A stretch of 32,000 bases of DNA from an uncultured Actinomycetota bacterium (GTDB taxonomy: Bacteria; Actinomycetota; Actinomycetes; Actinomycetales; Dermatophilaceae): positions 440,877 through 472,876 of the forward strand of contig CAVVZM010000002.1 of assembly GCA_963752705.1 (NCBI GenBank). Direction: 5' to 3'. How positions within the stretch are numbered: the first letter of the stretch is position 1; every line of letters begins with the position of its first letter. This document shows, in pieces, positions 938 to 22,590 of the stretch. Made by a program: the position numbers and the translations under genes. The notes below the pieces were generated by a model. It was not told the DNA's origin, did no database searches, and saw only the letters and a list, made by a program, of their open reading frames with translations.

Positions 938-1471
938 TCAGTCCCGCAGTTCCAGCGTGGTGCGGCCCACCTTGACCACGGACCCCGACTCGACCGGCAC
1001 GGCGCCGGTGATCTTCGCGCCCCCGACGACCGTGCCGTTGCGGGAGCCGAGGTCCTCGACGAACCAGCCCTCGGCGCGCGGGAAGATCCGCAGGTGGCGG
1101 CCCGAGGCGAACTCGTCGTCGATGACGAGGGTGCACTCGGGGTTGCGGCCGACGACCACGCCTTGCCGGCCGAGGGGCAGGGAGGTGCCCGCCATCTGGC
1201 CGTCCGTGACGACGAGGGTCGTCGGCGGGCGGCGACGGCGGGGCTGACGCGCGGCGGCGGCGGCCCCGGCTCCGACGGCAGCCGCGGCCGGTGCGCGGGG
1301 GGCCGGCGCCGGAGCGACCGGGCGGGCGCCGGCCCGGCGGTCGGCCCGTGACCGGTGGGACACCCGGGTGCCGTAGAGGTCGCGGCGCAGCACGGCGGCC
1401 AGCGACAGCACGAAGACCCACAGCAGCGCGAGCAGGCCGAGGCGGACGATCGTGTAGGTGAGCTCGCTCAT
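938..1471 (-). CDS. fhaB: FHA-domain membrane protein FhaB/FipA
   Basis: 177 aa. N-terminal TM helix (LGLLALLWVFVLSLAAVL), an Ala/Pro/Arg linker, and a C-terminal FHA domain (GRNPECTLVIDDEFASGRHLRI...DLGSRNGT). It sits between fhaA and pstP, and its stop is 3 nt before the pstP ATG. Confidence 0.9.
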   Translation of the reverse strand: MSELTYTIVRLGLLALLWVFVLSLAAVLRRDLYGTRVSHRSRADRRAGARPVAPAPAPRAPAAAAVGAGAAAAARQPRRRRPPTTLVVTDGQMAGTSLPLGRQGVVVGRNPECTLVIDDEFASGRHLRIFPRAEGWFVEDLGSRNGTVVGGAKITGAVPVESGSVVKVGRTTLELRD

Positions 1472-1483
1472 CGGGTCACCGGG

Positions 1484-3052: not shown

Positions 3053-3135
3053 GCGCGAGTGGCGGAATGGCAGACGCGCTGGCTTCAGGTGCCAGTGCCC
3101 GCAAGGGCGTGGGGGTTCAAGTCCCCCCTCGCGCA
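3053..3135 (+). tRNA. tRNA-Leu, anticodon CAG
   Basis: Cloverleaf folded by eye. Acceptor GCGCGAG/CTCGCGC. D arm GCG-GAATGGCAGA-CGC. Anticodon arm CTGGC-TTCAGGT-GCCAG. Long variable arm GCCC-GCAA-GGGC. T arm GGGGG-TTCAAGT-CCCCC. Discriminator A. No encoded CCA. Total 83 nt. A tRNA-Leu next to fhaA matches the arrangement I recall in Mycobacterium. Confidence 0.93.
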
Positions 3136-6548: not shown

Positions 6549-6549
6549 C

Positions 6550-7536: not shown

Positions 7537-8504
7537 CGGCGTCGCCGCCGGTCGGAGGAGATGCGCAGCAGCGAGCGCACGAGGTCCTCGTCGGTGCGCA
7601 CCTGGTGGAGCTCGACCCCCGCGCCGCGGGTGGCTTCTTCGAGCTGCGCCTGCTGCTCCGCTGCGGCGGCGCGCATCCGGTCGCGGAAGGCGGGGTCGGA
7701 GGTGTCGACGAAGATCTGCTCGCCCGTCTCGGCGTCCTCGACGTAGATCGAGCCGACGTCGGGCAGCTCGCTCTCGCGCGGGTCGCTCACCTGCAGCGCG
7801 ACCACCTCGTGACGGCGGGCCAGCCGGCCGAGGGCGGGCTCCCACCCGGGGGCGCTGATGAAGTCGGAGACGACGAGCACCACCGACCGCCGGGTGATGA
7901 TGCCGGCCGAGGCGTGCAGCAGGGCGCCGAGGTCGGTGACGGGGGGCCGCGCGGTGGGCGCGTCGCGGTCGCGGCGCCGCGGACGGCCCAGCCGGGGGCG
8001 GCCGGGCGGATGCGTGGGGGCGGCCGGTCCCGCCTCGCGCCGGGTCAGCAGGGCGCGGGCGATGCGCAGCACCTGGTTGCGGCCCGACGCCGGGGGGATG
8101 ACCGTCTCGATGCCCTGGTCGAAGACGACGACGCCCACCCGGTTGCCGCGCCGCGCCAGCACGAGCCCGAGGGTGGTCGCGACCTCCGCGAGGACGAGGT
8201 CCTTCTGCCGGTCCACCGGGCCGAACCCCATCGACGCCGAGTGGTCGAGGAGCAGCCACGCCGTGATCTCGCGGTCCTCGACGTACTCGCGCACGTAGGG
8301 GGTGTCGGTACGCGCCGTGACGTTCCACTCGATATGCCGGAGGTCGTCGCCGGGCTCGTACTCGCGCAGGTTGGTGAAGTCGAGCCCGTCGCCGCGGAAC
8401 AGGCTGCGGTAGTCGCCCTGGAGGCGGCCGTCGAGCCGGCGCACGACCCGCCACTCGAGCTGCCGGAGCAGTCGCTCCGGCGTCAGCGTGGCGGTCTGGT
8501 CCAC
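7533..8504 (-). CDS. DUF58 protein (MoxR-associated)
   Basis: 323 aa, GTG start. Hallmark LREYEPGDDLRHIEWNVTAR, and a degenerate VWA-like core (WLLLDHSASM). It sits between moxR and the VWA genes. Confidence 0.85.
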   Translation of the reverse strand: MDQTATLTPERLLRQLEWRVVRRLDGRLQGDYRSLFRGDGLDFTNLREYEPGDDLRHIEWNVTARTDTPYVREYVEDREITAWLLLDHSASMGFGPVDRQKDLVLAEVATTLGLVLARRGNRVGVVVFDQGIETVIPPASGRNQVLRIARALLTRREAGPAAPTHPPGRPRLGRPRRRDRDAPTARPPVTDLGALLHASAGIITRRSVVLVVSDFISAPGWEPALGRLARRHEVVALQVSDPRESELPDVGSIYVEDAETGEQIFVDTSDPAFRDRMRAAAAEQQAQLEEATRGAGVELHQVRTDEDLVRSLLRISSDRRRRR

Positions 8505-9583
8505 GGTGAGCCACCAGGGCTGTGCCCGCCGGGGACGCCGGCCTGGGCGGGCCGCTCCCGCAGCGGGGTCTGCGGCACGGGCACCGAGTCGAGGATCGGC
8601 GTCAGCAGGTCGTCGGCGCTCATGTCCTCGGCGAGCGCCTCGTAGGAGAGCACGATCCGGTGCCGCAGCACGTCGCGGGCCAGGTCGCGCACGTCGCTCG
8701 CCAGCGCATACTCGCGTCCGCGCAGGTAGGCGAGCGCCCGGGCGGCCAGGATCATGTTGATGGAGGCACGCGGGCTGGCGCCGTAGGTGAGGTAGCGGGC
8801 CAGCTCGGCGCGCCCGACGATCGAGGGGTTGCGCGTCGCGGTGGCGAGCTGCACGGCGTACTCGATGACCCCGGGGTCGACGTAGACCTGGTCGGCCTCC
8901 TGCTGGTAGCGCCGCAGCGAGTCGGCGTCGAGCACCTGGTTCGTCGCCGCCAGGGCGCCGATCATCCGCTCGACGACGACGAACTCCTCGGCGGGAGAGG
9001 GGTATCCGATGAGCACCTTGAGCATGAACCGGTCGACCTGGGCCTCGGGGAGCTGGTAGGTGCCCTCGGACTCGATGGGGTTCTGCGTGGCCATGACGAG
9101 GAACGGGTCGGGCGCCGGGAAGGTCTCCCGGCCGATGGTCACCTGGCGCTCCTGCATGACCTCGAGCAGGGCCGACTGCACCTTGGCGGGCGCCCGGTTG
9201 ATCTCGTCGGCGAGCACGAGGTTGGCGAAGACCGGGCCCAGCGACACCTGGAACTCGCCGTCGCGCTGGTTGTAGATGCGGGTGCCGACGAGGTCGGCGG
9301 GCACGAGGTCGGGGGTGAACTGGATGCGCTGGAAGTCGCCGCCGATCGCCTGGGCCAGGGTCTTGATGGCCATGGTCTTGGCCAGACCCGGCACCCCCTC
9401 GACGAGCAGGTGGCCGCGGGCGAGGAGGGCGATGATCATCCGCTCCAGCAGGTCGTCCTGGCCGACGATGGTGCGCTTGACCTCATAGAGGGCCTGCTCG
9501 AGCGGATGCGTACGCGTCGGAGGCGTCGGCGGGACGGGCTGGCCCTGCTGGGGGTTGCGGTGGGGCTCGCGGGGGTGGTCCAT
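8483..9583 (-). CDS. moxR: MoxR-family AAA+ ATPase
   Basis: ATG 9583 is preceded by GGAG 5 nt upstream. Walker A is EGVPGLAKT, Walker B is LVLADEINRAP, followed by FLVMATQNPIE and YGASPRA. A roughly 30-aa low-complexity tail overlaps the DUF58 start by 22 nt. Confidence 0.92.
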   Translation of the reverse strand: MDHPREPHRNPQQGQPVPPTPPTRTHPLEQALYEVKRTIVGQDDLLERMIIALLARGHLLVEGVPGLAKTMAIKTLAQAIGGDFQRIQFTPDLVPADLVGTRIYNQRDGEFQVSLGPVFANLVLADEINRAPAKVQSALLEVMQERQVTIGRETFPAPDPFLVMATQNPIESEGTYQLPEAQVDRFMLKVLIGYPSPAEEFVVVERMIGALAATNQVLDADSLRRYQQEADQVYVDPGVIEYAVQLATATRNPSIVGRAELARYLTYGASPRASINMILAARALAYLRGREYALASDVRDLARDVLRHRIVLSYEALAEDMSADDLLTPILDSVPVPQTPLRERPAQAGVPGGHSPGGSPWTRPPR

Positions 9584-10603: not shown

Positions 10604-11521
10604 CTACGCCGACGCGCCCACCGTGCGGAACCCGGCGTTGCCCATGGAGGAGTCGGGGGTGTTCGACGACCGGGCGGCGTTGCGGTAGCGGTTGCAGTAG
10701 GAGTCGTGGCACAGGTAGGAGCCGCCGCGCATGACCCGCGCGAAGCCGGAGTCGGGGCCGAGCGGGTCGGTGCGCGGCGACCGCGCGTAGTAGCTCGGGT
10801 GCCACCAGTCGGCGCACCACTCCCAGACGTTGCCCACCGTCTGGTGGAGCCCGAAGCCATTGGGGGCGAACGCGGTCACGGGGGCGGTGGTCAGCCACCC
10901 GTCCAGCGCGGTGTTGACCGTGGGGAACCGGCCCTGCCAGATGTTGCAGCGCCACCCACCGCCATCGGGCCGCTCGTCACCCCACGGGTAGCGGCCCCCC
11001 TCCAGCCCGCCGCGCGACGCATACTCCCACTCGGCCTCGGTGGGGAGCCGGCGGCCGGCCCAGGCGGCGTAGGCGCTCGCGTCGTTCCAGCTGACGTGGA
11101 CGACCGGGTGGTCGCCGAGGCTGTCGAGGTCGGACCGCGAGCCGCCCGGGTGGCGCCAGTCGGCGCCCTGCACGCCCACCCACCACGGGGTGCCGGAGGC
11201 GGGCCCCATGACCTCGTCGGGCGGCGCGGCCACGGCCAGGTGGAAGACGGCGGAGAAGCCGAACGTCTCCGCCTCGGTGCGGTAGCCACTGGCGTCGACG
11301 AAGCGGGCGAAGTCGTCGTTCGTCACGCTCGTCGTGTCGATGCTGAACGGCGAGAGCTGCACCGCGTGCACCGGCCCCTCGCCGTCGCCGACGTTGCGGT
11401 CACCGGTGGCGTCGCCCATGCGGAAGACCCCGCCCGGGAGGACGGCCTGCGGGACGGTAGTGCCGCACCTCACCGGCCGCCGGCGGCGCGAGCGGCACCG
11501 GCGCGACGGCGAGCACGACAT
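10604..11521 (-). CDS. Formylglycine-generating enzyme (FGE / SUMF1 family)
   Basis: 305 aa. Motifs: LPGGVFRMGD, HPVVHVSWNDASAYAAWAGRRLPTEAEWEYA, GNVWEWCADWW, and the active-site pair RGGSYLCHDSYCNRYR. The Arg/Cys-rich first 16 residues look non-native, so GTG 11473 is an alternative start. Confidence 0.9.
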   Translation of the reverse strand: MSCSPSRRCRSRRRRPVRCGTTVPQAVLPGGVFRMGDATGDRNVGDGEGPVHAVQLSPFSIDTTSVTNDDFARFVDASGYRTEAETFGFSAVFHLAVAAPPDEVMGPASGTPWWVGVQGADWRHPGGSRSDLDSLGDHPVVHVSWNDASAYAAWAGRRLPTEAEWEYASRGGLEGGRYPWGDERPDGGGWRCNIWQGRFPTVNTALDGWLTTAPVTAFAPNGFGLHQTVGNVWEWCADWWHPSYYARSPRTDPLGPDSGFARVMRGGSYLCHDSYCNRYRNAARSSNTPDSSMGNAGFRTVGASA

Positions 11522-12834: not shown

Positions 12835-13719
12835 CTAGAGGCGGTGGGCGGCGGCCCGCACGAGAACCGTGGCCCACGTGCGGAACGGCGCCCAGCGCTC
12901 GGCGAACCGGGCGTACTCCTCGTCGCTCATGGGCTCGTCGATGCCGTAGAGCCGGTGCACCGACGCGCGCCCACGGGGCTCCTCGGGGGCCAGGACGTCG
13001 GCGAAGCCGCACGCCCGCACGACGATGAGCGCGCTGTAGAAGGGACCGATGCCCGGCAGCCGCTGCACCGCCTCGCTCGCCGCCTCGGGCCCCATCGCGA
13101 CCAGCCGGTCGGCCTCGAGGTCGCCGGCCTGTGCCGCCGCTCCGATCGCCCGCAGCCGCGGCACCCGGTCGGCGGGCAGCCCCGGCACCCCGGGGTCGTC
13201 CGGCAACGCTGCCAGGGCGCTCGGCGGGGGCAGGGCCGCGACGGGCTGGCCCGCCAGGTCGAAGGTCTCGCCGTACGCCTCGCTCAGCCGCTGGCGTACC
13301 CCGATGCCCTGCGGGCGGGCGCGCCGGGCACTGACCACCGACCAGACCGCCGCCTCGTATGGGGAGTAGAACAACGGTGGTCGGAGACCGGGCGCCGCCT
13401 TCTGCAGCGCGCCGATGACCGGGTCGCGGCGGCCGAGCTCGGCGAACGCCTCGCCGTCGTGGTCGCAGGAGAGCACCCGCGCCACCTGACGGGCCACCGC
13501 GTCGGGGTCAGCGTCACCGTGGATGGTCAGGTGCAGCGTCTCGCCGTCCTGCCGCACCTCCACGCCCGCGGCGGTCTCCAGGTCGTGGTCGACGCGGAAC
13601 GCCATCCGCATGACCCCGTCGAAGTCCCGCTCGGCCCGGTGCCCGAAGCCGAAGAGCGCGAGCTCCTCCAGCGAGAAGGGGCCGCGGGTCGGGATGGTGC
13701 GCTGCTCGGTCGCCGTCAT
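12835..13719 (-). CDS. HhH-GPD superfamily DNA glycosylase (AlkA-like 3-methyladenine glycosylase II)
   Basis: The real start is ATG 13719 (MTATEQRTIPTRGPFSLEEL...), inside the 791-aa track ORF. Helix-hairpin-helix region VQRLPGIGPFYSALIVVRACG. The ATG overlaps the sulfatase stop (ATGA at 13719-13716). Confidence 0.72.
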   Translation of the reverse strand: MTATEQRTIPTRGPFSLEELALFGFGHRAERDFDGVMRMAFRVDHDLETAAGVEVRQDGETLHLTIHGDADPDAVARQVARVLSCDHDGEAFAELGRRDPVIGALQKAAPGLRPPLFYSPYEAAVWSVVSARRARPQGIGVRQRLSEAYGETFDLAGQPVAALPPPSALAALPDDPGVPGLPADRVPRLRAIGAAAQAGDLEADRLVAMGPEAASEAVQRLPGIGPFYSALIVVRACGFADVLAPEEPRGRASVHRLYGIDEPMSDEEYARFAERWAPFRTWATVLVRAAAHRL

Positions 13720-15149
13720 GCCCCTATGGTGACGCCGGGGTCCGACATCCCGGCCGGGACCGGCTGGCTCGGATGCGGCTCGTCCCCCACCGCCGCCTGG
13801 GCCCGCCACAGCCGCACCTCGAGGTCGGCCCGCACCACGGCGTACGCCGGGTCGTCGGCGACATTGCGCAGCTCCTCGGGGTCGGTCTCGAGGTCGTAGA
13901 GCTCCCACTCGGGCGGGTAGACACGGTCGCCGCAGCCGGGGTAGCCCATCCCGTCGTTGTAGAAGTAGATGAGCTTGTGCCGAGCCGTGCGGTAGCCGTA
14001 GTGGGCCGGCGCCTGGTGGCTCGGGTCGTCGTGCTCCCAGTAGCGGTAGTAGAGGCCGTCGGCCTCGGGCGGAGCGGCCCCGCCGGTGAGGTCGGCCCAG
14101 AAGCTGCGGCCCTGCATCCGCGGATGGTGCGCCACCCCGGCGGCGTCGAGGATCGTCTGCGCGACGTCCACGTTCGTGACGATGCCGGTATGCGTACCGC
14201 CGGCCGGGACCGCGCGCGGGTAGGACACGAGGAACGGCATCTGGAGCGACTGCTCGTACATGAACCGCTTGTCGAACCATCCGTGGTCGCCGAGGAAGAA
14301 GCCCTGGTCCGACGCATACATGAGCAGGGTGTCGTCGAGCTGGTCGTGCTCGGCGAGCCAGTCGACGACCCGGCCCACGTTGTCGTCGACGGACGCGACG
14401 CAGCGCAGGTAGTCCTCCATGTAGCGCTGGTACTTCCACAGCGCCTCGTCCTCGGGCGAGAGCCCTTGCGGCACAGGCTGTTTCAGGTCGGTGGCGTTGA
14501 GGTGCTCGGCGATGCGCATGGCCGCACGCTTGGCCGACTCCGAGCGGGTGGCCAGGTCGTCGGTGAACGTCGTGGGCACCGGGATGGGCTCGGTGTAGAG
14601 GTCGGCGTGGGCGGCGTCCGGCTCCCACGGCCGGTGCGGGGCCTTGTGGTAGATCAACAGGCACCACGACGCGTCCGGGTCGAGCGACTCGAGCCAGCGC
14701 AGCGAAAGGTCGGTGATGACGTCGGTGGCGTAGCCCTCCTCGACCCGCAGCCCGTCGACCGACAGGAACTGCGGCTCGACGTACTCGCCCTGGTCGATGA
14801 GCACGTCCCAGTAGTCGAAGCCCTGGGGGTCGTGCCGGATGCCGTCGGTCTCGCCGTCGCCCATGTGCCACTTGCCGACGATGGCCGTGCGGTAGCCGGC
14901 GTCGCGCAGCTGCGTGACGAAGGTCGGCTGCGAGGCGTCGATGAAGGTCCGCAGCGTGCGCACGCCGTTGACGTGGCTGTAGGTGCCGGTCAGGAGGCTC
15001 GCCCGGCTCGGAGCGCAGAGGGAGTTCGTCGCGAAACAGCTCTCCAGGACCACGCCCCGCCGCGCGATGTCGTCGATGCGGGGCGTGTGGTTGACGACCG
15101 AGCCGTAGACCCCGATGGCGTGCGCCGCATGGTCGTCGGTGAGGATCAT
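13716..15149 (-). CDS. Cys-type (formylglycine-dependent) sulfatase. No signal peptide seen. N-terminus looks clipped.
   Basis: 477 aa. Motifs: ILTDDH, FGly motif LCAPSRASLLTG (CxPxR), GKWHMG, and ASDQGFFLGDHGW. The in-frame sequence just upstream of the ATG still encodes ERRPNIA, the conserved sulfatase N-terminal motif, but has no start codon. Confidence 0.88.
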   Translation of the reverse strand: MILTDDHAAHAIGVYGSVVNHTPRIDDIARRGVVLESCFATNSLCAPSRASLLTGTYSHVNGVRTLRTFIDASQPTFVTQLRDAGYRTAIVGKWHMGDGETDGIRHDPQGFDYWDVLIDQGEYVEPQFLSVDGLRVEEGYATDVITDLSLRWLESLDPDASWCLLIYHKAPHRPWEPDAAHADLYTEPIPVPTTFTDDLATRSESAKRAAMRIAEHLNATDLKQPVPQGLSPEDEALWKYQRYMEDYLRCVASVDDNVGRVVDWLAEHDQLDDTLLMYASDQGFFLGDHGWFDKRFMYEQSLQMPFLVSYPRAVPAGGTHTGIVTNVDVAQTILDAAGVAHHPRMQGRSFWADLTGGAAPPEADGLYYRYWEHDDPSHQAPAHYGYRTARHKLIYFYNDGMGYPGCGDRVYPPEWELYDLETDPEELRNVADDPAYAVVRADLEVRLWRAQAAVGDEPHPSQPVPAGMSDPGVTIGA

Positions 15150-15264
15150 CGCGATGTTCGGCCGTCGCTCGGCTCGAGGTCCATGGCGCCATCGTGCCGG
15201 ACGGGTGCACGGCCGGGACTGCGGGCCTGACGACCAGATGTCCCGTTGCGAAGGGATATCCAGC

Positions 15265-15308
15265 GTCAGCGCGCAGATCGGTCGTCAGCGCGCCGATCGG
15301 TCGTCAGG
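15265..15308. repeat. 19-bp tandem direct repeat, about 2.3 copies
   Basis: Copy 1 is GTCAGCGCGCAGATCGGTC (15265-15283). Copy 2 is GTCAGCGCGCCGATCGGTC (15284-15302). A partial copy GTCAGG follows. Copy 2 contains the 8-bp palindrome CCGATCGG. The repeat overlaps the tspO stop codon. Confidence 0.85.
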
Positions 15309-15771
15309 ACGAGGGGTTGCGGGCCGCGATCGAGGCGTTGAGGGCGGTCGCGAAGGCGGTCCACGCGGCATACGGGGCGAGCAGCCAGCCGGCGGCGGGG
15401 TCGACGCGGGCGCTGCGGCGCACGAGGTCGAGGTTCGAGACGTTGAGGGCGAGGATCTCGGCGAGGGCCCAGCGCGGCTTCTTCGCGGTGAAGAAGACCC
15501 AGGTCCAGCCGATGTTGAGGACGAGGTTCGTGGCCAGCGCCGCGATGTACGCCCGGCGCTCGTCCTCGTCCTCGATGCGGTCGATCGTGCGCGCCGACCC
15601 GACGGCGATGAGGGTGTAGAGCGTCGTCCACGCCGGGCCGAACGCCCACCCGGGCGGCTGCCACGACGGCTTGTCGAGGCGGTCGTACCAGCGCGACCGC
15701 ACGTCGGTGCCGAGGCCCCCGGTCACGGCGGTGCCGACGAGGGCGGGGACGGTCCACTTCAATGCTGACAT
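15304..15771 (-). CDS. tspO: TspO/MBR family tryptophan-rich sensory protein
   Basis: 155 aa, five hydrophobic segments, Trp-rich. Hallmark KPSWQPPGWAFGPAWTTLY and LAPYAAWTAFATALN. A GGAG sits 6 nt upstream of the ATG. Confidence 0.9.
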   Translation of the reverse strand: MSALKWTVPALVGTAVTGGLGTDVRSRWYDRLDKPSWQPPGWAFGPAWTTLYTLIAVGSARTIDRIEDEDERRAYIAALATNLVLNIGWTWVFFTAKKPRWALAEILALNVSNLDLVRRSARVDPAAGWLLAPYAAWTAFATALNASIAARNPSS

Positions 15772-15796
15772 GGGCTCTCCTTCGGATGGGTGGGCG

Positions 15797-17158
15797 TCAG
15801 ACCGCCCGGAGACGCTCCAGCGCCTCCTTGCGCTCCACGTCGTGGTCGACGATCGGCGCGGGGTAGTCCTCAGGCGGGGGGTCGAGCTTCCACGGCTCGT
15901 GGATCTCCTTGGCGGACAACGACTTCAGCTCCGGCACCCACCGCCGCACGTAGTCCCCGGCCGGGTCGAACTTCTTGCCCTGCAGCGTCGGGTTGAACAC
16001 GCGGTAGTAGGGCGCCGCGTCGGTGCCGGTGCCCGCCGTCCACTGCCAGCCGTGCTGGTTGTTGGCGAGGTCGCCGTCGATGAGGTGGTCCATGAAGTGC
16101 TTCGCGCCGACGGTCCACTCCAGGTGCAGGTCCTTGACGAGGAACGACGCGACGATCATCCGCAGCCGGTTGTGCATCCACCCGGTGGCGATGAGCTGGC
16201 GCATCCCGGCGTCGACGATGGGGAAACCGGTGCGCCCTTCCTGCCAGGCGGCCAGCTTCTCGTCCGCCTCCTTGCCTGTGTCGTAGTCCATGCCCTTGAG
16301 CTGCGGGGAGTAGTAGTCGTGGGCGCTGTGCGGGAAGTGGAAGAGGATCGCGGCGTAGAAGTCGCGCCAGCACAGCTGCCGCCGGTACGCCTCGCCGGCC
16401 CGCCCCAGGTCGGCGAGCATCGTGCGCGGGTGGATGGTGCCGAGCTTGAGGTGCACCGACATGTGCGACGTCGAGTCGAGGTCGGGGCGGTTGCGCTCCT
16501 TGCTGTAGCGCGCGAGGTCGTCCTTCTGGAACGCCGTCCACAGGCGGTGCGCCGCCGCCTCGCCCGCGTCGGGGATCTCGACGGAGGTCTTCGGGTCGTG
16601 CGGGAGGTCGGTGCCGTCGACGGGGTGCCAGTCGACGCTGCCCGGCCGGGTCTGCGCCGGGCTGTGCCAGCCGCGTTCGGACCACGCCCGGTAGTACGGG
16701 GTGAAGACCTTGAACGGGGTGTCGTCCTTCTTGAGCACGTGCCCCGGCGACACGGCATACGGGCTGCCGGTGCGGACGAGGGGTATGCCGCCGCCGACCT
16801 TCCCCAGCGCGGTCTCGACCCGCTCGTCGCGGGCCCGGCCGTAGGGGGCGAAGTCCTCGCTGATGTGGACCGCGCTCGCGCCGATCTCCTTGGCCAGCGC
16901 GGGAACGACGTTCTCCGGCTTGCCCCGCTTGATCGTCAGCCGGCCGCCGTGGCTGCGCAGGTCCTCGTCGAGGGCGCGCAGGGTGCGGTAGAGGAACGCC
17001 GTGCGCGGACCGGCGTCGGCGCGCAGCAGCACGTCGTCGAGCACGAACAGGGCGGTGACCGGCCCGTCCTTGGCCGCGGCGTCGAGCGCCGGATGGTCGT
17101 GCAGCCGCAGGTCGCGGCGGAACCACAGGATCGTCGGCTGGTCTGCCGTGGACGTCAC
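15797..17158 (-). CDS. phr: Deoxyribodipyrimidine (CPD) photolyase
   Basis: GTG 17158 gives MTSTADQPTILWFRRDLRLHDHPAL, inside the 942-aa track ORF. FAD-binding region: TGFPIVDAGMRQLIATGWMHNRLRMIVASFL and DGDLANNQHGWQWTAGTGTDAAPYYRVFNP. The start overlaps the upstream stop (GTGA at 17158-17155). Confidence 0.93.
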   Translation of the reverse strand: MTSTADQPTILWFRRDLRLHDHPALDAAAKDGPVTALFVLDDVLLRADAGPRTAFLYRTLRALDEDLRSHGGRLTIKRGKPENVVPALAKEIGASAVHISEDFAPYGRARDERVETALGKVGGGIPLVRTGSPYAVSPGHVLKKDDTPFKVFTPYYRAWSERGWHSPAQTRPGSVDWHPVDGTDLPHDPKTSVEIPDAGEAAAHRLWTAFQKDDLARYSKERNRPDLDSTSHMSVHLKLGTIHPRTMLADLGRAGEAYRRQLCWRDFYAAILFHFPHSAHDYYSPQLKGMDYDTGKEADEKLAAWQEGRTGFPIVDAGMRQLIATGWMHNRLRMIVASFLVKDLHLEWTVGAKHFMDHLIDGDLANNQHGWQWTAGTGTDAAPYYRVFNPTLQGKKFDPAGDYVRRWVPELKSLSAKEIHEPWKLDPPPEDYPAPIVDHDVERKEALERLRAV

Positions 17159-18804
17159 GCCGAGAGCTCCTCGCGTCGGATGGACCGCTCGAACAACGGC
17201 GGGAGGAAGCGCAGCATGAGCATCGCCCACGTCACGTGGGTGAGCATCGGGGCCTGGATGCCGCCGGACGCCCGGCGCTGCATCCCGAACAGCAGCCCCA
17301 TCACCCCGCCGGCCACGGTGAGGGCGGGGTTGCGGCTCGCCGCCGTCGCCACGGTGTAGGCGGCCGTCGAGATGAGGATCGGCCGGTCGGCCGCCGCGGT
17401 GTAGAAGGCGCCGCGGAAGAACATCTCCTCGGCGAGCCCGTTGACCGAGGTCGTGAGGATGATCAGCGGCATGCTGCCCTGGTCGGCGTAGCGCAGCACG
17501 TTCCCGATGGCCCGGTCGAGGATCGGGACCTCCCGGGCGACGAGCGCCGCCGCGTAGAACCCGCCGAAGGTGAGCACGCCGGTGACGACCGGTGTGACGA
17601 TCGGGCGGCGCAGGTTGTTGTCGCGCCCCTTGATCCAGCCGAGGTGCAGCGGACCCGAGGCGACGGCCCCGGCCGTCCAGGTCGCCGCGAGCGCCCCGGT
17701 GAGCCAGTAGAACTTCTTCGACCCGGGGGCGACGTTGAGCGAGACGCCGAGCAGGGTGGCCCCCGCGACCCCCACGCCGGCGACGACCCGGCGCCGACGC
17801 GTACGCACGGCGTCGGTCTCCTGGGGGACCTGCGGCTCCTGGAGGTGGAAGGGCTTGGGCAGCCGCCCGAGCACCCGGTGGATGGTGTCGGCGGGCGAGG
17901 CGCCGGAGGCGTCGTCGGCCCCGCGCGCGGCCCGCTCGTCGAGCGCCGCGCGGGCGGCGTCGTCGTAGCCCATCGGCTCGAAGGGCACCATGCGGCGGAT
18001 GCTGGGGTCCTTGACGACGACCTCGTTGGTCATCGAGTCGACGAGGTTGCGGCCCGTGGTCGTGTCGACGTCGGTGACGAGCGACAGCCACCGGGACGAC
18101 AGCTGGGGGGTGAGCATCGGCACCGGGACGATGGGCAGGTCGCGGCCCTGGAGCTTGGCCACCCGCTGCAGCATCGTCTTGTAGCGCAGCACCTCCGGGC
18201 CGCCGATCTCCAGCGCCCGGCCGGCCGCTTCGGGCAGGTCGAGCACGGCGACGAGGTAGCGCACGACGTCGGCCACGGCGATCGGCTGCGTGCGGGTCAT
18301 CACCCAGCGGGGCGTGATCATGGCCGGCAGGTGGTCGACGAGCTGGCGGGTCATCTCCCACGAGATCCCGCCGTCGCCGATGACGATGCCCGCGCGCAGC
18401 GTCGTGACGGGCACGCCGCTCGCGGCCAGCTCGGTCTCCACCTCGCGGCGGCTGCGCAGGTGGGCGGACAGCTCCTCGCTGTCGTCGCCGAGGCCGCCGA
18501 GGTAGACGATCCGCTGCAGACCCGCACGGGCGGCGGCGACCCCGAAGGCCTTGGCGCCCTTCGCGTCCTTGTTCTCGAAGTCGTCGTCGTCGAGGGAGTG
18601 CACGAGGTAGTACCCCGCGTCGCACCCCTCCATCGCGGCGTCCAGGGAGCTCGCGTCACCGACGTCGCCGGCGACCGCGGTGCCGGCACCGTCGTAGCTC
18701 TCGGGGCGGCGCGTCATGGCCCGCACCTCGTGGCCCGCCTCGACGAGGGCCGGGCAGAGGCGACGCCCGACGAAGCCGGACGCGCCCGCGACGAGGACCT
18801 TCAT
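17155..18804 (-). CDS. Fusion protein: N-terminal atypical SDR / NAD(P)H-binding (NmrA/YbjT-like) domain plus C-terminal CPBP (CAAX-protease/Abi) membrane domain
   Basis: ATG 18804 gives MKVLVAGASGFVGRRL (GxxGxxG), inside the 707-aa track ORF. The central segment TPQLSSRWLSLVTDV is typical of YbjT-like SDRs. The C-terminal ~200 aa has about 6 hydrophobic helices and CPBP motif 1, LAEEMFFRG. The start overlaps the litR stop (ATGA at 18804-18801). Confidence 0.8.
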   Translation of the reverse strand: MKVLVAGASGFVGRRLCPALVEAGHEVRAMTRRPESYDGAGTAVAGDVGDASSLDAAMEGCDAGYYLVHSLDDDDFENKDAKGAKAFGVAAARAGLQRIVYLGGLGDDSEELSAHLRSRREVETELAASGVPVTTLRAGIVIGDGGISWEMTRQLVDHLPAMITPRWVMTRTQPIAVADVVRYLVAVLDLPEAAGRALEIGGPEVLRYKTMLQRVAKLQGRDLPIVPVPMLTPQLSSRWLSLVTDVDTTTGRNLVDSMTNEVVVKDPSIRRMVPFEPMGYDDAARAALDERAARGADDASGASPADTIHRVLGRLPKPFHLQEPQVPQETDAVRTRRRRVVAGVGVAGATLLGVSLNVAPGSKKFYWLTGALAATWTAGAVASGPLHLGWIKGRDNNLRRPIVTPVVTGVLTFGGFYAAALVAREVPILDRAIGNVLRYADQGSMPLIILTTSVNGLAEEMFFRGAFYTAAADRPILISTAAYTVATAASRNPALTVAGGVMGLLFGMQRRASGGIQAPMLTHVTWAMLMLRFLPPLFERSIRREELSA

Positions 18805-19787
18805 CGCGTCACCGCCGGCTCCGGTCGCCGCGGCGCGCGGAGGCGCTGCGCCTCGGTGACCGGGTCGCCGGCCAGCGCGACGGCACCCGCGGCCCGGACG
18901 GCCTCGGGGGTGGCCCCCGCGCCTGCGAGCACGACGGAGGCGGTGGCCCCGAGCCGGGTCAGGTCCTCGGCGGCGGCCAGGAACGGAGCGGGGGTGGTCG
19001 CGGCGAGGACGACGACCTCGGGTCGTAGATGGCGCACGGCGTTCTCCAGATCGGTCACGGGGGTGTTGTTGCCCAGGAAGGTGATGCGCCAACCGCAGCG
19101 ATTCAAGGCGATCCCGAACACCATGAGCGGAAGGTCGTGCAGCTCGCCCTTCGGGCAGGCGAGGACGGCGCGCGGGCCCACCCCGTCGCCCCAGCCGAGG
19201 GCGAGGGCGGCCAGACGGCCGCGGATGAGGTTGCTCGCGAAGTGCTCCTGGGCGATGTCGACGCGGCCCGCCGCCCACCGGGCGCCCAGCTGCGCCAGGT
19301 AGGGCATGACGACGTCGCGCAGCACCGTGGTGACGGTCAGCCGGCGCAACATGGCGTCGAACACCAGCTGAGCGGCGGGCTCGTCGTAGGCGTCGAGCGC
19401 CTCCTCGAGGGCGCGGTAATAGCGCATGGCGGCGTCGGACTCGTCGTCCCCGTCGGGGACGGTGGCGACCGGGGTCGCGCCGGCGGGGGCCTGGCGCGCC
19501 GCCACGGCGGCCTCCGCGGCCGACAGGCCGTGGGTGAGCTGGTCCTGCATGAGGCGGACGCGGCGCTCGTCCTGCTCGGTGTAGAGGCGGTAGCCCTTGG
19601 GCGACCGGGCCGGCTGCAGCAGGCGGTAGCGCCGCTCCCAGGCCCGCAGCAGCTCGGTGCTGACGCCGACCCGTCGGCTCAGCTCGCCGATCCGCACCCC
19701 CACCGGCTCAGCCGGCTCACTCGGCACAGCCCGGTCGGCCGGGTCGGCCGGGTCGAGCGGCTCGCGGTCGGACAGGGGCGGGGGCAT
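18801..19787 (-). CDS. litR: MerR-family, cobalamin-binding light-responsive regulator (CarH/LitR class)
   Basis: MerR HTH: VRIGELSRRVGVSTELLRAWERRYRLLQPARSPKGYRLYTEQD. Wx9EH motif: WAAGRVDIAQEH. B12-binding domain with ExH: CPKGELHDLPLMVFGIALNRCGWRITFLG. The track ORF starts at TTG 19802, but I prefer ATG 19787 (MPPPLSDREP). Confidence 0.87.
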   Translation of the reverse strand: MPPPLSDREPLDPADPADRAVPSEPAEPVGVRIGELSRRVGVSTELLRAWERRYRLLQPARSPKGYRLYTEQDERRVRLMQDQLTHGLSAAEAAVAARQAPAGATPVATVPDGDDESDAAMRYYRALEEALDAYDEPAAQLVFDAMLRRLTVTTVLRDVVMPYLAQLGARWAAGRVDIAQEHFASNLIRGRLAALALGWGDGVGPRAVLACPKGELHDLPLMVFGIALNRCGWRITFLGNNTPVTDLENAVRHLRPEVVVLAATTPAPFLAAAEDLTRLGATASVVLAGAGATPEAVRAAGAVALAGDPVTEAQRLRAPRRPEPAVTR

Positions 19788-19793
19788 ACCCAG

Positions 19794-19823
19794 ACTGTAC
19801 AAACCTTGGACATCAGGCGTCGA
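19794..19823 (-). promoter_or_regulatory. Candidate leaderless promoter and operator for litR
   Basis: On the minus strand: TCGACG (19823-19818), an 18-nt spacer, TACAGT (19799-19794), then 6 nt to ATG 19787. The spacer and -10 carry TGTCCA (19812-19807) and TGTACA (19801-19796) exactly 11 bp apart. On the plus strand these read TggACA and TgtACA. Confidence 0.3.
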
Positions 19824-20274
19824 GGGGCACGACCTTGAACACCGGCATCCCGGGCGCGGCCGCCGCCAGCTCGCCGTCCGTGGACTTCGCCGTGAGGCCC
19901 TCGACGAACCGTCCGACCTCCCAGCCCCACCGCGAGAGGTAGACCCGCAGCACCGGGACCCGCTCGTCCACGGGCACCTCGACGAGGCGCACCTGCTCGA
20001 TGCGGCGCCCCACCCGCAGCTCCGCGACCCCGGCCACCCGCACGTTGCGCACCCACTGGGTGACGCCGCGCGGTGACACGAGGTAGCGCTCGCCGGCCAG
20101 GGGCAGGAGGTTGACGGGCACGCTCCGGGGGGTGCCGGACGAGCGGCCGGACACGGTGAGCACGCGCGAGCCGAGCAGGCTGACGCCGTGGCGGGTCATC
20201 CAGCGCACCGCCCGCATGAAGGCGAGCTCGGCCGCGGAGGTGGGGGCGATGTAGCGGTCGGCGGTCTGGTTCAT
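19813..20274 (-). CDS. DUF385 / deazaflavin (F420)-dependent nitroreductase-family oxidoreductase
   Basis: 153 aa. Pattern GRSSGTPRSVPVNLLPLAGERYLVSPRGVTQWVRNVRVAGVAELRVG...ERVPVLRVYL matches the Ddn/DUF385 split-barrel family by eye. It is divergent from a TetR gene. Confidence 0.78.
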   Translation of the reverse strand: MNQTADRYIAPTSAAELAFMRAVRWMTRHGVSLLGSRVLTVSGRSSGTPRSVPVNLLPLAGERYLVSPRGVTQWVRNVRVAGVAELRVGRRIEQVRLVEVPVDERVPVLRVYLSRWGWEVGRFVEGLTAKSTDGELAAAAPGMPVFKVVPLDA

Positions 20275-20310: not shown

Positions 20311-20347
20311 TGTTGTGACGAGTATGCGCCGGCGCCTCAGGCGTGTC

Positions 20348-20362
20348 AAGAGCACTGCTCTC
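20348..20362. promoter_or_regulatory. Palindromic operator O2 (candidate TetR site)
   Basis: AAGAGC-ACT-GCTCTC has 5/6 arm symmetry and lies 23 bp upstream of the TetR ATG (20385). The 18-mers 20292-20309 and 20349-20366 are reverse complements of each other at 17/18 positions. Confidence 0.5.
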
Positions 20363-20384
20363 GTTTCTGTGGGACGATGACGGG

Positions 20385-21077
20385 ATGAGCCCCGGAGTAC
20401 GAGCCGCCCGCCGCGACGACGTGACCCAGCGCGTGCTCGAGATCGGGCGCCGGCACCTGTCCGAGCAGGGGGCCGCGGCGCTGTCCCTGCGGGCGGTGGC
20501 CCGTGACCTCGGCATGGTGTCGTCGGCGGTCTACCGCTACGTCGCCGACCGCGACGACCTGCTGACCCTGCTGCTCATGGACGCCTACTCCGAGCTCGCC
20601 GACGTCGTCGACGAGGCCGTGGCCGGGGCTGCCCGGTCGGCCTGGGACACGCGGATCCTGGTCGCCGCGACCGCCGTGCGCAGCTGGGGGCTGCGCGAGC
20701 CGGCGCGCTACGCGCTGCTGTACGGCAGCCCGGTGCCCGGGTACGTCGCCCCCGAGCGCACCACCGAGCCCGGGACGCGGGTGATCCGGCTGCTCGTCGA
20801 CCTGGTGGAGGAGGGCGTGAGCCGCGGTGACGTCACCGACGGACCGGGGCCGGTGCCGGTCCCCCGAGCCCTGCGCACTGACCTCGCGCAGGTGCGCGAC
20901 GCCCTCGGCGCCACGATGGACGCCGCGGTGCTCGGCCGGGCCGTGGGGCTGTGGGCGACGGTGTTCGGGGCGGTGAGCCTCGAGGTCTTCGGCCAGCTGG
21001 GCGACGACACCTTCGCCGAGCCCGGCCTGCTGTTCGAGCAGCAGGTCCGTCTCGCTCTGGTCACCCTTCGGGGGTGA
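20385..21077 (+). CDS. TetR/AcrR-family transcriptional regulator
   Basis: HTH: LSLRAVARDLGMVSSAVYRYVADRDDLL. I prefer ATG 20385 over the track start GTG 20343, which would place operator O2 inside the coding sequence. Confidence 0.9.
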   Translation: MSPGVRAARRDDVTQRVLEIGRRHLSEQGAAALSLRAVARDLGMVSSAVYRYVADRDDLLTLLLMDAYSELADVVDEAVAGAARSAWDTRILVAATAVRSWGLREPARYALLYGSPVPGYVAPERTTEPGTRVIRLLVDLVEEGVSRGDVTDGPGPVPVPRALRTDLAQVRDALGATMDAAVLGRAVGLWATVFGAVSLEVFGQLGDDTFAEPGLLFEQQVRLALVTLRG

Positions 21078-21510
21078 GGCTCCCGGCCCCGCTGTGCGCG
21101 ACGCCCGTCGCTCCCAGGGAGGCGAGGTCCATGTGCAGCACCTCCCAGACGTGTCCGTCGGGGTCGCTGAAGCTGTGCCCGTACATCGGGCCCTCCTGCA
21201 TCTTGGGGAGCCACTCGCCCCCGCCGGAGGCGAGCGCCCGCTCGACGAGGTCGTCGACCTCGCGGGGGGAGTCGGCGCTGAGGCACATGATCGACGTGGT
21301 CGCGGCCTTCGGGTCGCCGACGGGGCCGGTCACGAAGTCGCCGAAGCGCTCGCGGGTCAGGAGCATGACGACGATGGTGTCCGACACGACGATGGAGGCG
21401 GTGGAGTCGTCGGAGAACATCTCGTTCACCCCGAAGCCCAGACCGGTGTAGAAGGAGCGGGACGCCTGCAGGTCCGAGACGGGCAGGTTGACGAAGATCA
21501 TCCGGTTCAT
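21061..21510 (-). CDS. VOC-family (glyoxalase/bleomycin-resistance fold) protein
   Basis: ATG 21510 gives MNRMIFVNLPVSDLQASRSFYTGLGFGVNEMF...GHSFSDPDGHVWEVLHMD, inside the 483-aa track ORF. The 3' end overlaps the convergent TetR gene by 17 nt. Confidence 0.85.
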   Translation of the reverse strand: MNRMIFVNLPVSDLQASRSFYTGLGFGVNEMFSDDSTASIVVSDTIVVMLLTRERFGDFVTGPVGDPKAATTSIMCLSADSPREVDDLVERALASGGGEWLPKMQEGPMYGHSFSDPDGHVWEVLHMDLASLGATGVAHSGAGSLTPEG

Positions 21511-21576: not shown

Positions 21577-22590
21577 ATGACGGATCTGGCCCTGGCCCGC
21601 ACCGACCGTGAGCACGACGACCGGGAGTTCATGGCGCTGGTCGAGCCCCTGCGCGGAGAGCTGACCGCCCACTGCTACCGGATGCTCGGCTCGGTGCACG
21701 ACGCCGAGGACCTCGTGCAGGAGACCTACCTGCGGGCCTGGCGCGCGTTCCACGGGTTCGAGGGGCGCTCCTCGGTGCGCACGTGGATGTACCAGATCGC
21801 CACCAACACCTGCCTGACCGCCCTCAAGGGCAAGGCCCGCCGCCCGCTGCCCACCGGTCTGGGCGCCCCGGCCTCCGACCCCGTCGGCGCCCTCGAGTCG
21901 CGGCCCGAGGTCTCCTGGCTGGAGCCGGCCCCCGACCGGGTCGTGGCCGGCACCGCCCCGGTCGACCCCGAGGCCGCCGCCGTCAGCAGCGACTCCATCC
22001 GGATCGCCTTCATCGCGGCCCTCCAGCACCTCACCCCCATCCAGCGGGCCGTCCTCATCCTGCGCGACGTGCTCGCGTGGCACGCGGCAGAGGTCGCCGA
22101 GGCCCTCGACACCTCGGTCGCGGCGGTCAACAGCGCGCTCCAGCGGGCTCGTGCGCAGATGGCCAAGCTCGACCCTCCCGACGAGGCGTCGGCGTCCCTC
22201 GGCGTCGACGACCCCGCCGCCCGTGCCCAGCTCGAGCGCTACGTCACCGCCTTCGAGCGCTACGACATCGACGGCATCGTCGCGATGCTCACGGCCGACG
22301 CGGTCTGGGACATGCCGCCCTTCACGGGCTGGTACCAGGGCAACGAGGCCATCGGCCGCCTCATCGCCACCCAGTGCCCCGCCAGCGGCCCCGGCGACAT
22401 GCGGCTCGTGCCGACGACAGCCAACGGCCAGCCGGCCTACGGCCTCTACATGCGCGACGACGACGGACGGCTGCGGGCGTTCCAGCTGCAGCAACTCACG
22501 CTCGGCGCCCACGGCGTCACCCGGGTCACCGCCTACTTCGACCTACGCCTCTTCGACCTGTTCGGCCTGCCCATGGAGCTGCCCGCCTGA
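21577..22590 (+). CDS. ECF sigma-70 factor with fused C-terminal SnoaL-like (NTF2) domain (SigG/SigJ-like architecture)
   Basis: 337 aa. Region 2: [36 protein letters not shown]. Region 4: [41 protein letters not shown]. The C-terminal ~130 aa reads [27 protein letters not shown]...[10 protein letters not shown]. No adjacent anti-sigma gene. Confidence 0.9.

Follow-up and report, generated by a model that had tools for sequence, protein, structure and literature searches.

A probable light-derepressed LitR operon in an actinobacterium carries a conserved two-domain membrane protein alongside photolyase and TspO

Introduction

CarH/LitR switches are mostly known for the onset of carotenoid synthesis, and they now serve as optogenetic parts. 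Class I regulators, described from Thermus thermophilus, Bacillus megaterium and the Myxococcales, share a domain order together with RxWERRY, Wx9EH and ExHx2G/P motifs, are autoregulated, and are encoded within the unit that they control. RxWERRY, Wx9EH and ExHx2P are used as the criteria for calling CarH; the classic B12 motif reads D/ExHx2G/P-x41-SxT/V-x22-27-GG, and the operator follows the rule nnnnTnnACAn, with 11-bp tandem repeats lying over the -35 and -10 elements (PMC9304148). In the class II systems of Pseudomonas, as far as the published account of PplR and PmlR describes them, what the regulator controls is not carotenoid genes but a photolyase, a short-chain dehydrogenase (SDR), an FAD-dependent oxidoreductase and proteins whose function is unknown; the Rossmann B12 domain is missing from these regulators, which depend on LOV proteins, and neither a CPBP-like partner nor TspO is among the genes described there (PMC9758184).

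Several protein families outside these systems are also relevant to the locus considered here. NDUFA9 (the 39-kDa subunit of complex I), KstA11, SimC7 and SwaQ2 are atypical SDRs without the classical Tyr, and NDUFA9 sits at the membrane surface, holding NADPH. SpdC of Staphylococcus aureus is a CPBP-fold membrane protein that positions a soluble partner enzyme without itself being catalytic, while in CPBP proteases the second motif, FxxxH, supplies a catalytic His. NmrA-type domains are known redox sensors, and porphyrin binding and light-dependent porphyrin breakdown are established for TspO.

Here we describe a locus within a window of 32,000 nucleotides (the whole stretch of DNA that was analysed) in which a CarH/LitR switch of known kind appears to govern a carotenoid-free gene set that includes a membrane protein new to light responses.

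Results

Gene order and boundaries of the unit

The source of the locus is a soil actinobacterium. Gene identities, motifs, the operator, overlaps and synteny were all read from the sequence, and the features are listed in Table 1.

Table 1 Features of the locus and its flanks, in window coordinates.
Feature	Coordinates	Strand	Remarks
Long hairpin	15226..15308	-	Starts at the tspO stop codon; possible terminator
tspO	15304..15771	-	Tryptophan-rich sensory protein/translocator protein, 155 aa; GGAG 6 nt upstream
phr	15797..17158	-	Class I CPD photolyase, 453 aa
SDR::CPBP-like fusion	17155..18804	-	549 aa; 4-nt overlaps at both ends
litR/carH	18801..19787	-	328 aa; predicted class I (AdoCbl-type) LitR/CarH photoreceptor-repressor
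P_litR promoter and CarH-type operator (putative)	19791..19824	-	Tandem 11-bp repeats; from sequence and comparison
F420H2-dependent quinone-reductase-like (Ddn-family) gene	19813..20274	-	Context, probably outside the unit
TetR gene	20343/20421-21077	+	Divergent from the Ddn-like gene

Read directly on the minus strand, the litR stop and fusion start overlap as ATGA (18804-18801) and the fusion stop and phr start as GTGA (17158-17155), while 25 nt separate the phr stop, ending at 15797, from the tspO ATG at 15771, which has its own GGAG at 15780-15777. These junctions agree with a preliminary description of the locus, and its statement that carotenoid genes are absent was likewise borne out by those genes of the window that were scanned. 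The 4-nt overlaps on both sides of the fusion argue for selected co-expression. We consider it likely that litR, fusion, phr and tspO form one transcription unit whose first product represses it in the dark, with light lifting the repression; the locus is probably a light-derepressed LitR operon of known kind that carries new cargo.

Beyond tspO, the hairpin has a 10-bp outer stem (CCUGACGACC/GGUCGUCAGG) without a U-tract, encloses a 19-nt tandem repeat (2.3 copies, 15264-15307), and folds with a marginal z of -1.97. It lies between tspO and a sulfatase gene 154 nt away, on a side where synteny is not conserved, and the sulfatase maturation enzyme (formylglycine-generating enzyme) is encoded further downstream. 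Given the hairpin, the gap and the downstream maturation enzyme, the unit most likely ends at tspO, and the earlier suggestion that the chain might continue into sulfatase-alkA appears unlikely on these grounds and on that of the unconserved synteny.

On the other side, the Ddn-like gene ends 25 nt ahead of the litR ATG with no intervening terminator. Its own promoter is sigma-70-like (TTGACA-17-CATACT, 20349-20321) and faces the divergent TetR gene; this TetR-Ddn pair is syntenic in L002-L007, L025, L029 and L081. Read-through from the Ddn promoter into litR is therefore possible. The window also has an ECF sigma gene at 21577-22590, 1.8 kb from the unit.

The regulator

The preliminary description assigned the regulator a MerR helix-turn-helix (HTH) and a B12-binding domain, and Pfam matches to MerR_1 (2.8e-14), B12-binding_2 and B12-binding bear this out. 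T. thermophilus CarH (TtCarH; 5C8D/3WHP) aligns with the protein over its full length (E 4e-28). The two signatures singled out earlier, WAAGRVDIAQEH and GELHDL, are both present and align exactly: WAAGRVDIAQEH falls on W131...E141-H142 of TtCarH, leaving Wx9EH intact, and the His of ELHDLP falls on the axial (lower-ligand) His. RAWERRY corresponds to the RxWERRY recognition-helix motif. RxWERRY, Wx9EH and ExHx2P are kept in all ten regulators encoded directly upstream of the fusion or the equivalent gene pair, the window's included (in the orthologues, ExH was taken from the alignment, and RxWExRY and Wx9EH from a motif scan).

In the remainder of the classic B12 motif, the window regulator departs from class I, with AAT in place of SxT, 41 residues on, and AG in place of GG, 23 further; orthologues in L002-L004 and L025 have SAT at the first of these positions. 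The regulator scores 135.7 bits against NCBIfam NF052513 (TransRegCarH equivalog), for which the cut-off is 400; as this is a narrow equivalog model, the shortfall argues against orthology with the model's proteins and not against family membership. By published sequence tests, the regulator passes as a predicted AdoCbl-dependent class I CarH/LitR protein.

The mechanical open reading frame begins at TTG 19802. Alignment with orthologues instead points to ATG 19787 as the start, and the TTG falls within the putative promoter/operator.

Promoter and operator

Two perfect tandem 11-bp repeats, TGTCCAaggtt (19812-19802) and TGTACAgtctg (19801-19791), read as TnnACA on the opposite strand and are flanked by degenerate repeats. 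The -10 box of the litR promoter (TACAGT, 19799-19794) sits within them, only 7 nt ahead of the litR ATG, so the litR mRNA is probably leaderless. Immediately next to the operator is the stop codon of the upstream gene (19815-19813); the end of this gene takes the place of the first repeat, and just two copies are perfect. Eight related loci (L002-L006, L025, L042 and L076) have this motif at an identical distance from their litR ATG, and two of them, L042 and L076, have three perfect TnnACA repeats.

In the window, the 19-nt operator core is found a single time (0.00 expected), as is the looser pattern TGT-N8-TGTA-N3-T (0.05 expected). Across the 80 genome-scan loci and the window, about 1.3 Mb per strand, TGT-N8-TGTANANT occurs ten times; nine occurrences precede litR and the tenth precedes a litR relic. 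The tandem operator and the placement of the regulator within the unit that it is proposed to autoregulate are shared with class I systems, whereas the putative leaderless promoter, the two perfect repeats and a cargo of membrane fusion, photolyase and TspO set the locus apart.

Photolyase and TspO

The phr product matches DNA_photolyase (8.8e-44) and FAD_binding_7 (1.2e-83) in Pfam. Its closest solved relatives are the CPD photolyases of A. nidulans (1TEZ/1OWL), E. coli (1DNP) and T. thermophilus (1IQR), at E of about 6e-83 to 1e-75, and lower scores were obtained with the NCBIfam models for DASH and plant cryptochromes. The tspO product matches TspO_MBR (149 bits, 7.9e-44) from position 4 to position 143 of the 145-position profile. 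Its solved relatives (E 1e-15 to 1e-19) are TspO of mouse, Rhodobacter and Bacillus, and the protein is a clear homologue of TspO from Rhodobacter sphaeroides and Bacillus cereus. The porphyrin connections of TspO, namely binding and light-dependent breakdown, are consistent with a photoprotective operon. A literature search pairing CarH with TspO returned no relevant report among the matches listed.

The fusion protein

The N-terminal half of the fusion is an NmrA/NDUFA9-like atypical SDR, followed by a conserved middle region and a C-terminal membrane half. Residues 2-153 match NAD_binding_10 (2.8e-18) and NmrA (2.6e-11) in Pfam, and the best fold and sequence matches of residues 1-300 are NDUFA9, KstA11, SimC7 and SwaQ2 (Foldseek E 1e-13 to 1e-12; TM to target 0.7-0.78). 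The dinucleotide motif GxxGxxG is present as G7-A-S-G10-F-V-G13 (GASGFVG), along with T31-R32. As in the four relatives, the classical Tyr is absent: YxxxK has no match, and its place is taken by H115-L-R-S-R119, aligned with H-F-E-T-K of KstA11. H115 and R119 are invariant across the fusion family. Identity to the NDUFA9/NmrA-like reductases is about 20%; none of these is joined to a CPBP-like domain, and unlike them the fusion family has the HxxxR pair and a conserved LVDSMxNE region.

The preliminary description called the second half CPBP. This half is a helical membrane domain of CPBP-like character, tentatively assigned to the Rce1/SpdC fold, and residues 444-527 match the Rce1-like family PF02517 at 41.0 bits against a gathering cut-off of 22.4. 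Motif 1, EExxxR, is kept as E459-E460-M-F-F-R464; in 57 sequences, neither Glu varies and the Arg is nearly invariant (at least 90%). At the position of motif 2, however, the family has Y483xxxT487, and the window protein has no His between E460 and H523. Motif 3, HxxxN/D, is also incomplete, with an invariant H523 followed at +4 by Ala here and by Ser in most relatives; W526 is invariant. As judged from these alignments, two of the three CPBP protease motifs are no longer intact in the membrane half, which has neither the motif-2 His nor the motif-3 Asn and is for this reason not a canonical CPBP protease.

Structural comparison of the membrane domain gave SpdC (6U0O_A, TM 0.59) and Rce1 (4CAD_C, TM 0.52) as the best matches, both non-significant at E > 0.1, and a profile of the domain found no solved CPBP protein by sequence. 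The full-length model has a pTM of 0.58, with uncertain domain packing. The family extends over at least 593 actinobacterial species, in which it usually takes the form of two overlapping genes, one for an NAD(P)-binding protein of NmrA/NDUFA9-like type and one for a membrane protein of 220-260 aa.

Conservation across loci

The preliminary description had made its reading depend on a gene order conserved in relatives, and such conservation was found. The order litR-fusion-phr(-tspO) recurs in L001-L006 and L025, phr-tspO in L006, L007 and L081, and fusion-phr-tspO in L007 and L081; litR is absent from the locus in L007, L029, L053 and L081. More broadly, 30 of 81 loci have a light-related marker (a B12-LitR, a MerR-DICT regulator, a photolyase, TspO, or FAD-oxidoreductase/DUF1365 genes) within four genes of the SDR/CPBP-like pair, and 51 have none. 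The latter include a Nocardioides group in which the pair lies between a two-component system and a UvrD-like helicase.

In L008, tspO directly follows the pair, and in L042, L059 and L076 an FAD-oxidoreductase and DUF1365 gene stand beside it, the oxidoreductase being an element shared with the class II LitR clusters. A divergent MerR-DICT regulator, which represents a second and unrelated type of sensor, adjoins the pair in 13 loci. Its HTH is 51% identical to that of LitR, and the DICT domain has been predicted to act in light response (PMC8612252); this regulator may correspond to the uncharacterised non-B12 LitR classes. That homologues adjoin MerR-DICT and FAD-oxidoreductase/DUF1365 genes in other lineages strengthens the earlier proposal of the fusion as a candidate new component of light-stress responses.

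Discussion

From these features we infer cobalamin binding, a response to light, co-transcription and all of the biochemistry of the fusion. In the mechanism that we propose, an AdoCbl-bound LitR oligomer would bind the tandem 11-bp TnnACA repeats over the -10 box and block RNA polymerase. UV, blue or green light would photolyse the Co-C bond, upon which the oligomer would disassemble and leave the DNA, and the operon would then be transcribed from its leaderless promoter. The 4-nt overlaps would couple translation of LitR, fusion and photolyase, with tspO re-initiating at its own GGAG. The cargo would be a damage-control set in which photolyase deals with cyclobutane dimers and TspO binds, and perhaps helps destroy, photosensitising porphyrins. 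The degenerate CPBP-like domain may serve as an anchor and a lipid-facing site for a substrate or partner, taking toward the SDR domain the role that SpdC has for SagB; here the partner is an NAD(P)-binding domain and not a glucosaminidase, and EExxxR is kept. What the fusion acts on may be lipophilic, either produced by photo-oxidation or giving rise to it; quinones, isoprenoid lipids and tetrapyrroles are examples. Our committed guess is that the fusion is not a protease but a membrane-anchored NAD(P)H-binding enzyme or sensor.

One may postulate that transcription comes mainly from the TetR-controlled Ddn promoter or is constitutive, such that LitR merely trims its own level or reports the supply of cobalamin and not light, and the cargo is not meaningfully light-induced. 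The sigma-70-like Ddn promoter, the terminator-free 25 nt ahead of litR, the synteny of TetR-Ddn with the cluster in many relatives and the retention of fusion-phr-tspO without an adjacent litR in L007 and L081 would all be in keeping with this. The operator, however, lies exactly over a well-formed, conserved leaderless promoter, an arrangement that is sensible only if that promoter matters; it is kept even where a DUF4232 gene separates Ddn from litR (L003, L004 and L025), a bound repressor would stop read-through as well, and all photoreceptor motifs are intact apart from AAT/AG in the classic B12 motif. We consider this scenario quite improbable, and prefer light-released transcription from the litR promoter.

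Two further alternatives concern the fusion itself. It could be an active glutamic-type intramembrane protease gated by its NAD(P)(H)-binding domain, signaling redox or light stress by cleaving an anti-sigma factor, a lipoprotein or some other membrane substrate; the Rce1-like match above the gathering score, the invariant EExxxR glutamates and single His, an invariant R491-N492-P493 that could replace the lost His and Asn, the redox-sensing record of NmrA-type domains and the nearby ECF sigma gene can be read in this way. Two of the four canonical catalytic positions are nevertheless missing family-wide, the domain profile retrieves no solved CPBP by sequence, and no conserved candidate substrate gene accompanies the pair, and we regard proteolysis as unlikely. 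Alternatively, the pair might do housekeeping work in the envelope or on lipids, unconnected with light, and its presence in the operon would be a lineage-specific accident, as might be suggested by the 51 loci without a light-related neighbor, by the envelope-stress and cell-wall genes around the Nocardioides pair (a PspC-type two-component system, an M15 peptidase), and by the unrelated genes adjoining the pair in Geodermatophilaceae. Against this, the pair is tied to genes of light response or photo-oxidation in several structurally different ways (a B12-LitR ahead of it; a photolyase behind it where LitR is lacking; a divergent MerR-DICT that has a palindromic operator; TspO directly downstream; FAD-oxidoreductase/DUF1365 alongside), and the overlaps on both sides of the window fusion point to selection for co-expression; we accord this possibility, too, a low probability. 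A more far-reaching possibility, which we consider less likely than not, is that the SDR and CPBP-like pair is a hitherto unrecognised module, widespread and conserved in actinobacteria, that deals with light or photo-oxidative stress and that different lineages have placed under at least two different MerR-family sensors (B12-LitR and MerR-DICT); it may act with TspO on membrane photosensitisers (tetrapyrroles, quinones) and not as a protease.

These comparisons single out a conserved membrane protein of two parts as a likely participant in light stress. The compact promoter/operator, putative and leaderless, could be a reusable part. MerR-DICT is a second candidate light regulator, and it has a clear palindromic operator (putative) of its own.

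Gene order and setting

The window has a GC content of ~73%, that of a high-GC actinobacterium, and its nearest public DNA comes from Lapillicoccus MAGs, in which the fusion protein is 96% (locus L001) and 93% (locus L006) identical; an identical copy of the fusion protein was absent from the contig index. Gene order was called with a codon log-odds gene caller trained on the window. The preliminary description had read ATGA and GTGA overlaps joining litR, the fusion gene and phr, followed by tspO after a 25-nt spacer with GGAG; all of these stand in the sequence at the coordinates claimed, and a Pfam scan returned the same domains for the four genes. The absence of carotenoid genes also holds for the window genes scanned. 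Elsewhere, the window encodes FhaA/FhaB, a MoxR-DUF58-BatA cluster, a PBP, an ECF sigma factor, a formylglycine-generating enzyme (FGE) and similar genes; the tRNA gene, FHA pair and MoxR cluster are ordinary housekeeping surroundings for actinobacteria. RNA elements such as a cobalamin riboswitch were also sought in the window, and only the tRNA gene came up.

Coordinates of genes and sequence elements in the window.
Feature	Position	Strand	Remark
FhaB/FhaA-like FHA pair	938-2251	-	
tRNA gene	3053-3135	+	
MoxR AAA-DUF58-two BatA/VWA cluster	5421-9583	-	
FGE	10604-11473	-	~2 kb downstream of sulfatase; FGE-sulfatase, 3.4e-82
alkA-like glycosylase	12835-13719	-	4-nt overlap with sulfatase (13719-13716)
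Sulfatase	13716-15149	-	
Gap			154 nt, between tspO and sulfatase
19-nt tandem repeat	15264-15307		
tspO	15304-15771	-	
phr	15797-17158	-	
SDR::CPBP-like fusion	17155-18804	-	
litR	18801-19787	-	
Perfect operator repeats	19812-19791		
Ddn-like F420H2-quinone-reductase family gene	19813-20274	-	
Ddn-like promoter	20321-20349	-	
TetR gene	20343-21077	+	divergent from Ddn-like gene
VOC/glyoxalase gene	about 21061-21500	-	between litR and ECF sigma gene
ECF sigma factor gene	21577-22590	+	C-terminal SnoaL_2 domain; 1.8 kb from litR

In Streptomyces, LitR acts together with the ECF sigma factor LitS; we found no evidence linking the ECF sigma factor of the window to litR.

The regulator and its predicted operator

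The window regulator can be aligned over its whole length with CarH/LitR of T. thermophilus (structures 5C8D and 3WHP; E 4e-28), with its Trp, Glu-His and axial His at the positions of those in the Thermus protein. Both motifs pointed out earlier, WAAGRVDIAQEH and GELHDL, are present. CarH proteins are identified by a recognition-helix RxWERRY, a Wx9EH that is intact and a D/ExHx2G/P...SxT/V...GG cobalamin motif (PMC9304148); the window protein carries RAWERRY, Wx9EH and ELHDLP, while further along its cobalamin motif AAT stands in for SxT and AG for GG. Several litR orthologues have SAT in place of AAT, and RxWERRY, Wx9EH and ExHx2P are kept in all ten regulators found directly upstream of a fusion or of a separate SDR and CPBP-like gene pair. 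On these motifs the protein is filed as a putative class I LitR/CarH with a small deviation in its cobalamin motif.

Mechanical ORF calling started litR at TTG 19802, which was ruled out by cross-locus comparison in favor of ATG 19787. In nine loci (the window, L002-L006, L025, L042 and L076), a TANNNT box (TACAGT, TACAAT, TAGAAT, TAGAGT or TATAGT) is followed by six nucleotides and then the litR ATG, a spacing that is the predicted geometry of a leaderless mRNA. The -10 box lies within tandem 11-bp repeats, each starting TGTnnA. Published CarH repeats have the form nnnnTnnACAn and overlap -35 or -10 elements (PMC9304148), and the litR repeats read on the opposite strand are exactly the TnnACA of that motif. 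The window holds two perfect repeats (TGTCCAaggtt and TGTACAgtctg) with degenerate repeats on both sides, and L042 and L076 hold three perfect ones. The operator core occurs once in the window versus 0.00 expected, and a looser pattern once versus 0.05. The 80 genome-scan loci and the window together hold ten occurrences of TGT-N8-TGTANANT, nine of them preceding litR; the tenth, in L076, precedes a truncated copy of litR next to comparable repeats that open a FAD-oxidoreductase/DUF1365 operon, and the sequence suggests that LitR may also control those genes there. The predicted operator fits dark repression by promoter occlusion with release in light, and it is the strongest new evidence for the light-derepression model of the preliminary description.

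The second promoter/operator copy in L076 and the truncated litR remnant that follows it (LPLLPIGELSRRLGV...) lie at 5729-5900, and 11-bp-spaced TGTCAA/GTCTAA/GTATAG repeats stand at the very start of the divergent FAD-oxidoreductase-DUF1365 operon. Four loci have no litR and retain a promoter relic before the fusion or SDR gene: L007 (about 7950-8010), L081 (6860-6920), L029 (about 7860-8000) and L053 (about 7830-8000). The litR ATG has given way to that of the fusion in L007 and L081, where the -10 box has decayed to TGAAGG. In L029 the old promoter (TAGAGT) is linked to the start of the SDR gene through a mini-ORF of 33 codons and a GTGA overlap.

Extent of the predicted transcription unit

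Gene overlaps and a short spacer tie litR, the fusion gene, phr and tspO together as a predicted unit. The gap after tspO folds, with a marginal z of -1.97, as a long hairpin that opens with the tspO stop codon; directly downstream of tspO, the hairpin includes 2.3 copies (96% match) of a tandemly repeated 19-nt unit, CGTCAGCGCGCAGATCGGT. This hairpin may be the terminator. The preliminary description had proposed that the chain might continue into the sulfatase and alkA-like genes. Synteny of the sulfatase with the cluster is absent in most relatives, however, an opposite-strand gene often intervenes before alkA, and the sulfatase is better accounted for by its functional pairing with the FGE than by a light operon. 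We therefore ended the unit at tspO and rejected the continuation, on the grounds of the hairpin gap, the poor synteny and the functional match between FGE and sulfatase.

On the upstream side lies the Ddn-like gene, served by a sigma-70-like promoter of its own. It ends 25 nt ahead of litR with no terminator in between, and some degree of read-through into litR is possible. Three loci (L003, L004 and L025) have a DUF4232 gene between the two and still keep the litR promoter. The Ddn-like promoter (TTGACA-17-CATACT) is of near-consensus sigma-70 type and overlaps the start region of the TetR gene, an arrangement that is typical of a TetR-controlled divergent pair, and many relatives keep this pair in synteny with the light cluster. 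Photolyases of the group to which phr belongs may use a deazaflavin antenna.

The fusion protein and its family

The N-terminal half of the fusion belongs to the atypical, NmrA-like SDRs. It carries GASGFVG, a T31-R32 pair that is invariant and follows the second strand, and an invariant H115xxxR119 at the site of HxxxK in KstA11 and YxxxK in classical SDRs; by fold it best matches NDUFA9, a subunit of complex I, and the reductases KstA11, SimC7 and SwaQ2. The C-terminal half clears the Pfam Rce1-like threshold and retains EExxxR and one His, features that would accord with an active protease. There is no His between E460 and H523, however, and position H523+4 is Ala; the CPBP motif-2 His and motif-3 Asn are therefore absent family-wide, with R491-N492-P493 and W526 conserved in their stead. 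A confident predicted model of this half (pLDDT 86.8, pTM 0.84) gave top TM-scores of 0.59 for SpdC and 0.52 for Rce1, with Foldseek E-values that were not significant, and a profile search with the membrane domain hit no protein of solved structure at the sequence level. The C-terminal half is thus probably a CPBP-fold domain and not a canonical protease, and we consider proteolytic activity of the fusion unlikely. Our own tentative guess, which could well prove wrong, is an enzyme or sensor that depends on NAD(P)H and is anchored in the membrane, its non-protease CPBP-like half serving as anchor or substrate site.

Among the candidates scored, 6056 fusion homologs were found at E <= 1e-5, and relatives occur in at least 593 species genomes, every one listed belonging to Actinomycetota; carriers include Nocardioides, Klenkia, Modestobacter, Blastococcus, Pseudonocardia, Nocardia, Amycolatopsis and Mycobacterium. 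The split form, an SDR gene (~300 aa) followed by a membrane protein gene (~240 aa), is found in 46 of the 81 compared loci, with a 4-nt overlap in 23 of these by our gene calls, and the fused form in 24. A membrane-domain profile matched 268 clusters at E <= 1e-30 in a library of 1.84 billion proteins, nearly all of them stand-alone proteins of 200-270 aa. The fusion therefore derives from a conserved pair of separate genes, and this argues for a joint function of its two halves. Our literature search found no paper on the fusion or the pair, and no description of the pair and TspO under a B12 photoreceptor.

Possible association of the pair with light

Within four genes of the pair, across the 81 loci, we counted B12-type LitR in 12 loci, photolyase in 12 (including L007, L022, L028, L029 and L053, which lack an adjacent litR), tspO in four (including L008, where it directly follows a split pair in a different regulatory context), a divergent MerR-DICT regulator in 13, FAD-dependent amine-oxidase-like genes in eight and DUF1365 in three. 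At least one such light-related marker is present in 30 loci; the other 51 have none, which counts against a universal link to light. In Nocardioides the fusion has a two-component system on one side and a UvrD-like helicase on the other, and is under its own leaderless promoter. Nocardioides-type fusions (L012, L014, L015, L017, L018, L020 and L027) share a conserved leaderless-style promoter, GGTTGCGG ... cacTAGCGT/TACGGT - 6 nt - ATG, and no TnnACA repeats were found in it; these fusions are therefore regulated differently. Pseudomonas light-inducible LitR regulons are reported to include photolyase, SDR and FAD-oxidoreductase genes, and Micrococcales to have non-B12 LitR classes whose function is not known (PMC9758184).

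For the window itself, we consider it likely that the four genes are repressed by LitR in the dark and co-expressed upon release in light. In such a scheme, AdoCbl-bound LitR would occlude the leaderless promoter in the dark; light would cleave the Co-C bond of the cofactor and the repressor would depart, whereupon the four genes would be expressed with translational coupling. The photolyase would then repair UV lesions, TspO would handle porphyrins, and the fusion would act as the membrane-anchored enzyme or sensor envisaged here. The regulatory device is of a well-studied kind and would in principle not surprise a specialist; the locus offers a good, testable handle on the uncharacterized SDR/CPBP-like family.

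The HTH of the MerR-DICT regulator is 51% identical to that of LitR, and the DICT domain is predicted to function in light response (PMC8612252). The intergenic region of these loci holds a conserved palindrome, CCTAAACA-N4-TGTTTAGG, and the operon may be a second light or redox regulon. The loci concerned (L008, L009, L030, L034, L036, L039, L046, L058, L059, L069, L070, L072 and L074) come from Nocardioidaceae/Propionibacteriales-type genomes, L058 being from Nocardioides pocheonensis Gsoil 818, with conserved operon positions at about 6.6-9.7 kb in most, and the regulator gene itself is apparently leaderless. The palindrome is followed by genes for an 80-aa protein (core DWTDLGREMWSFLTGREAAINYRFIDM) that had no Pfam match, an FHA-domain protein, the SDR and the CPBP-like protein, and an amine-oxidase-like FAD protein, classical SDR or PNPOx-like gene often comes next.
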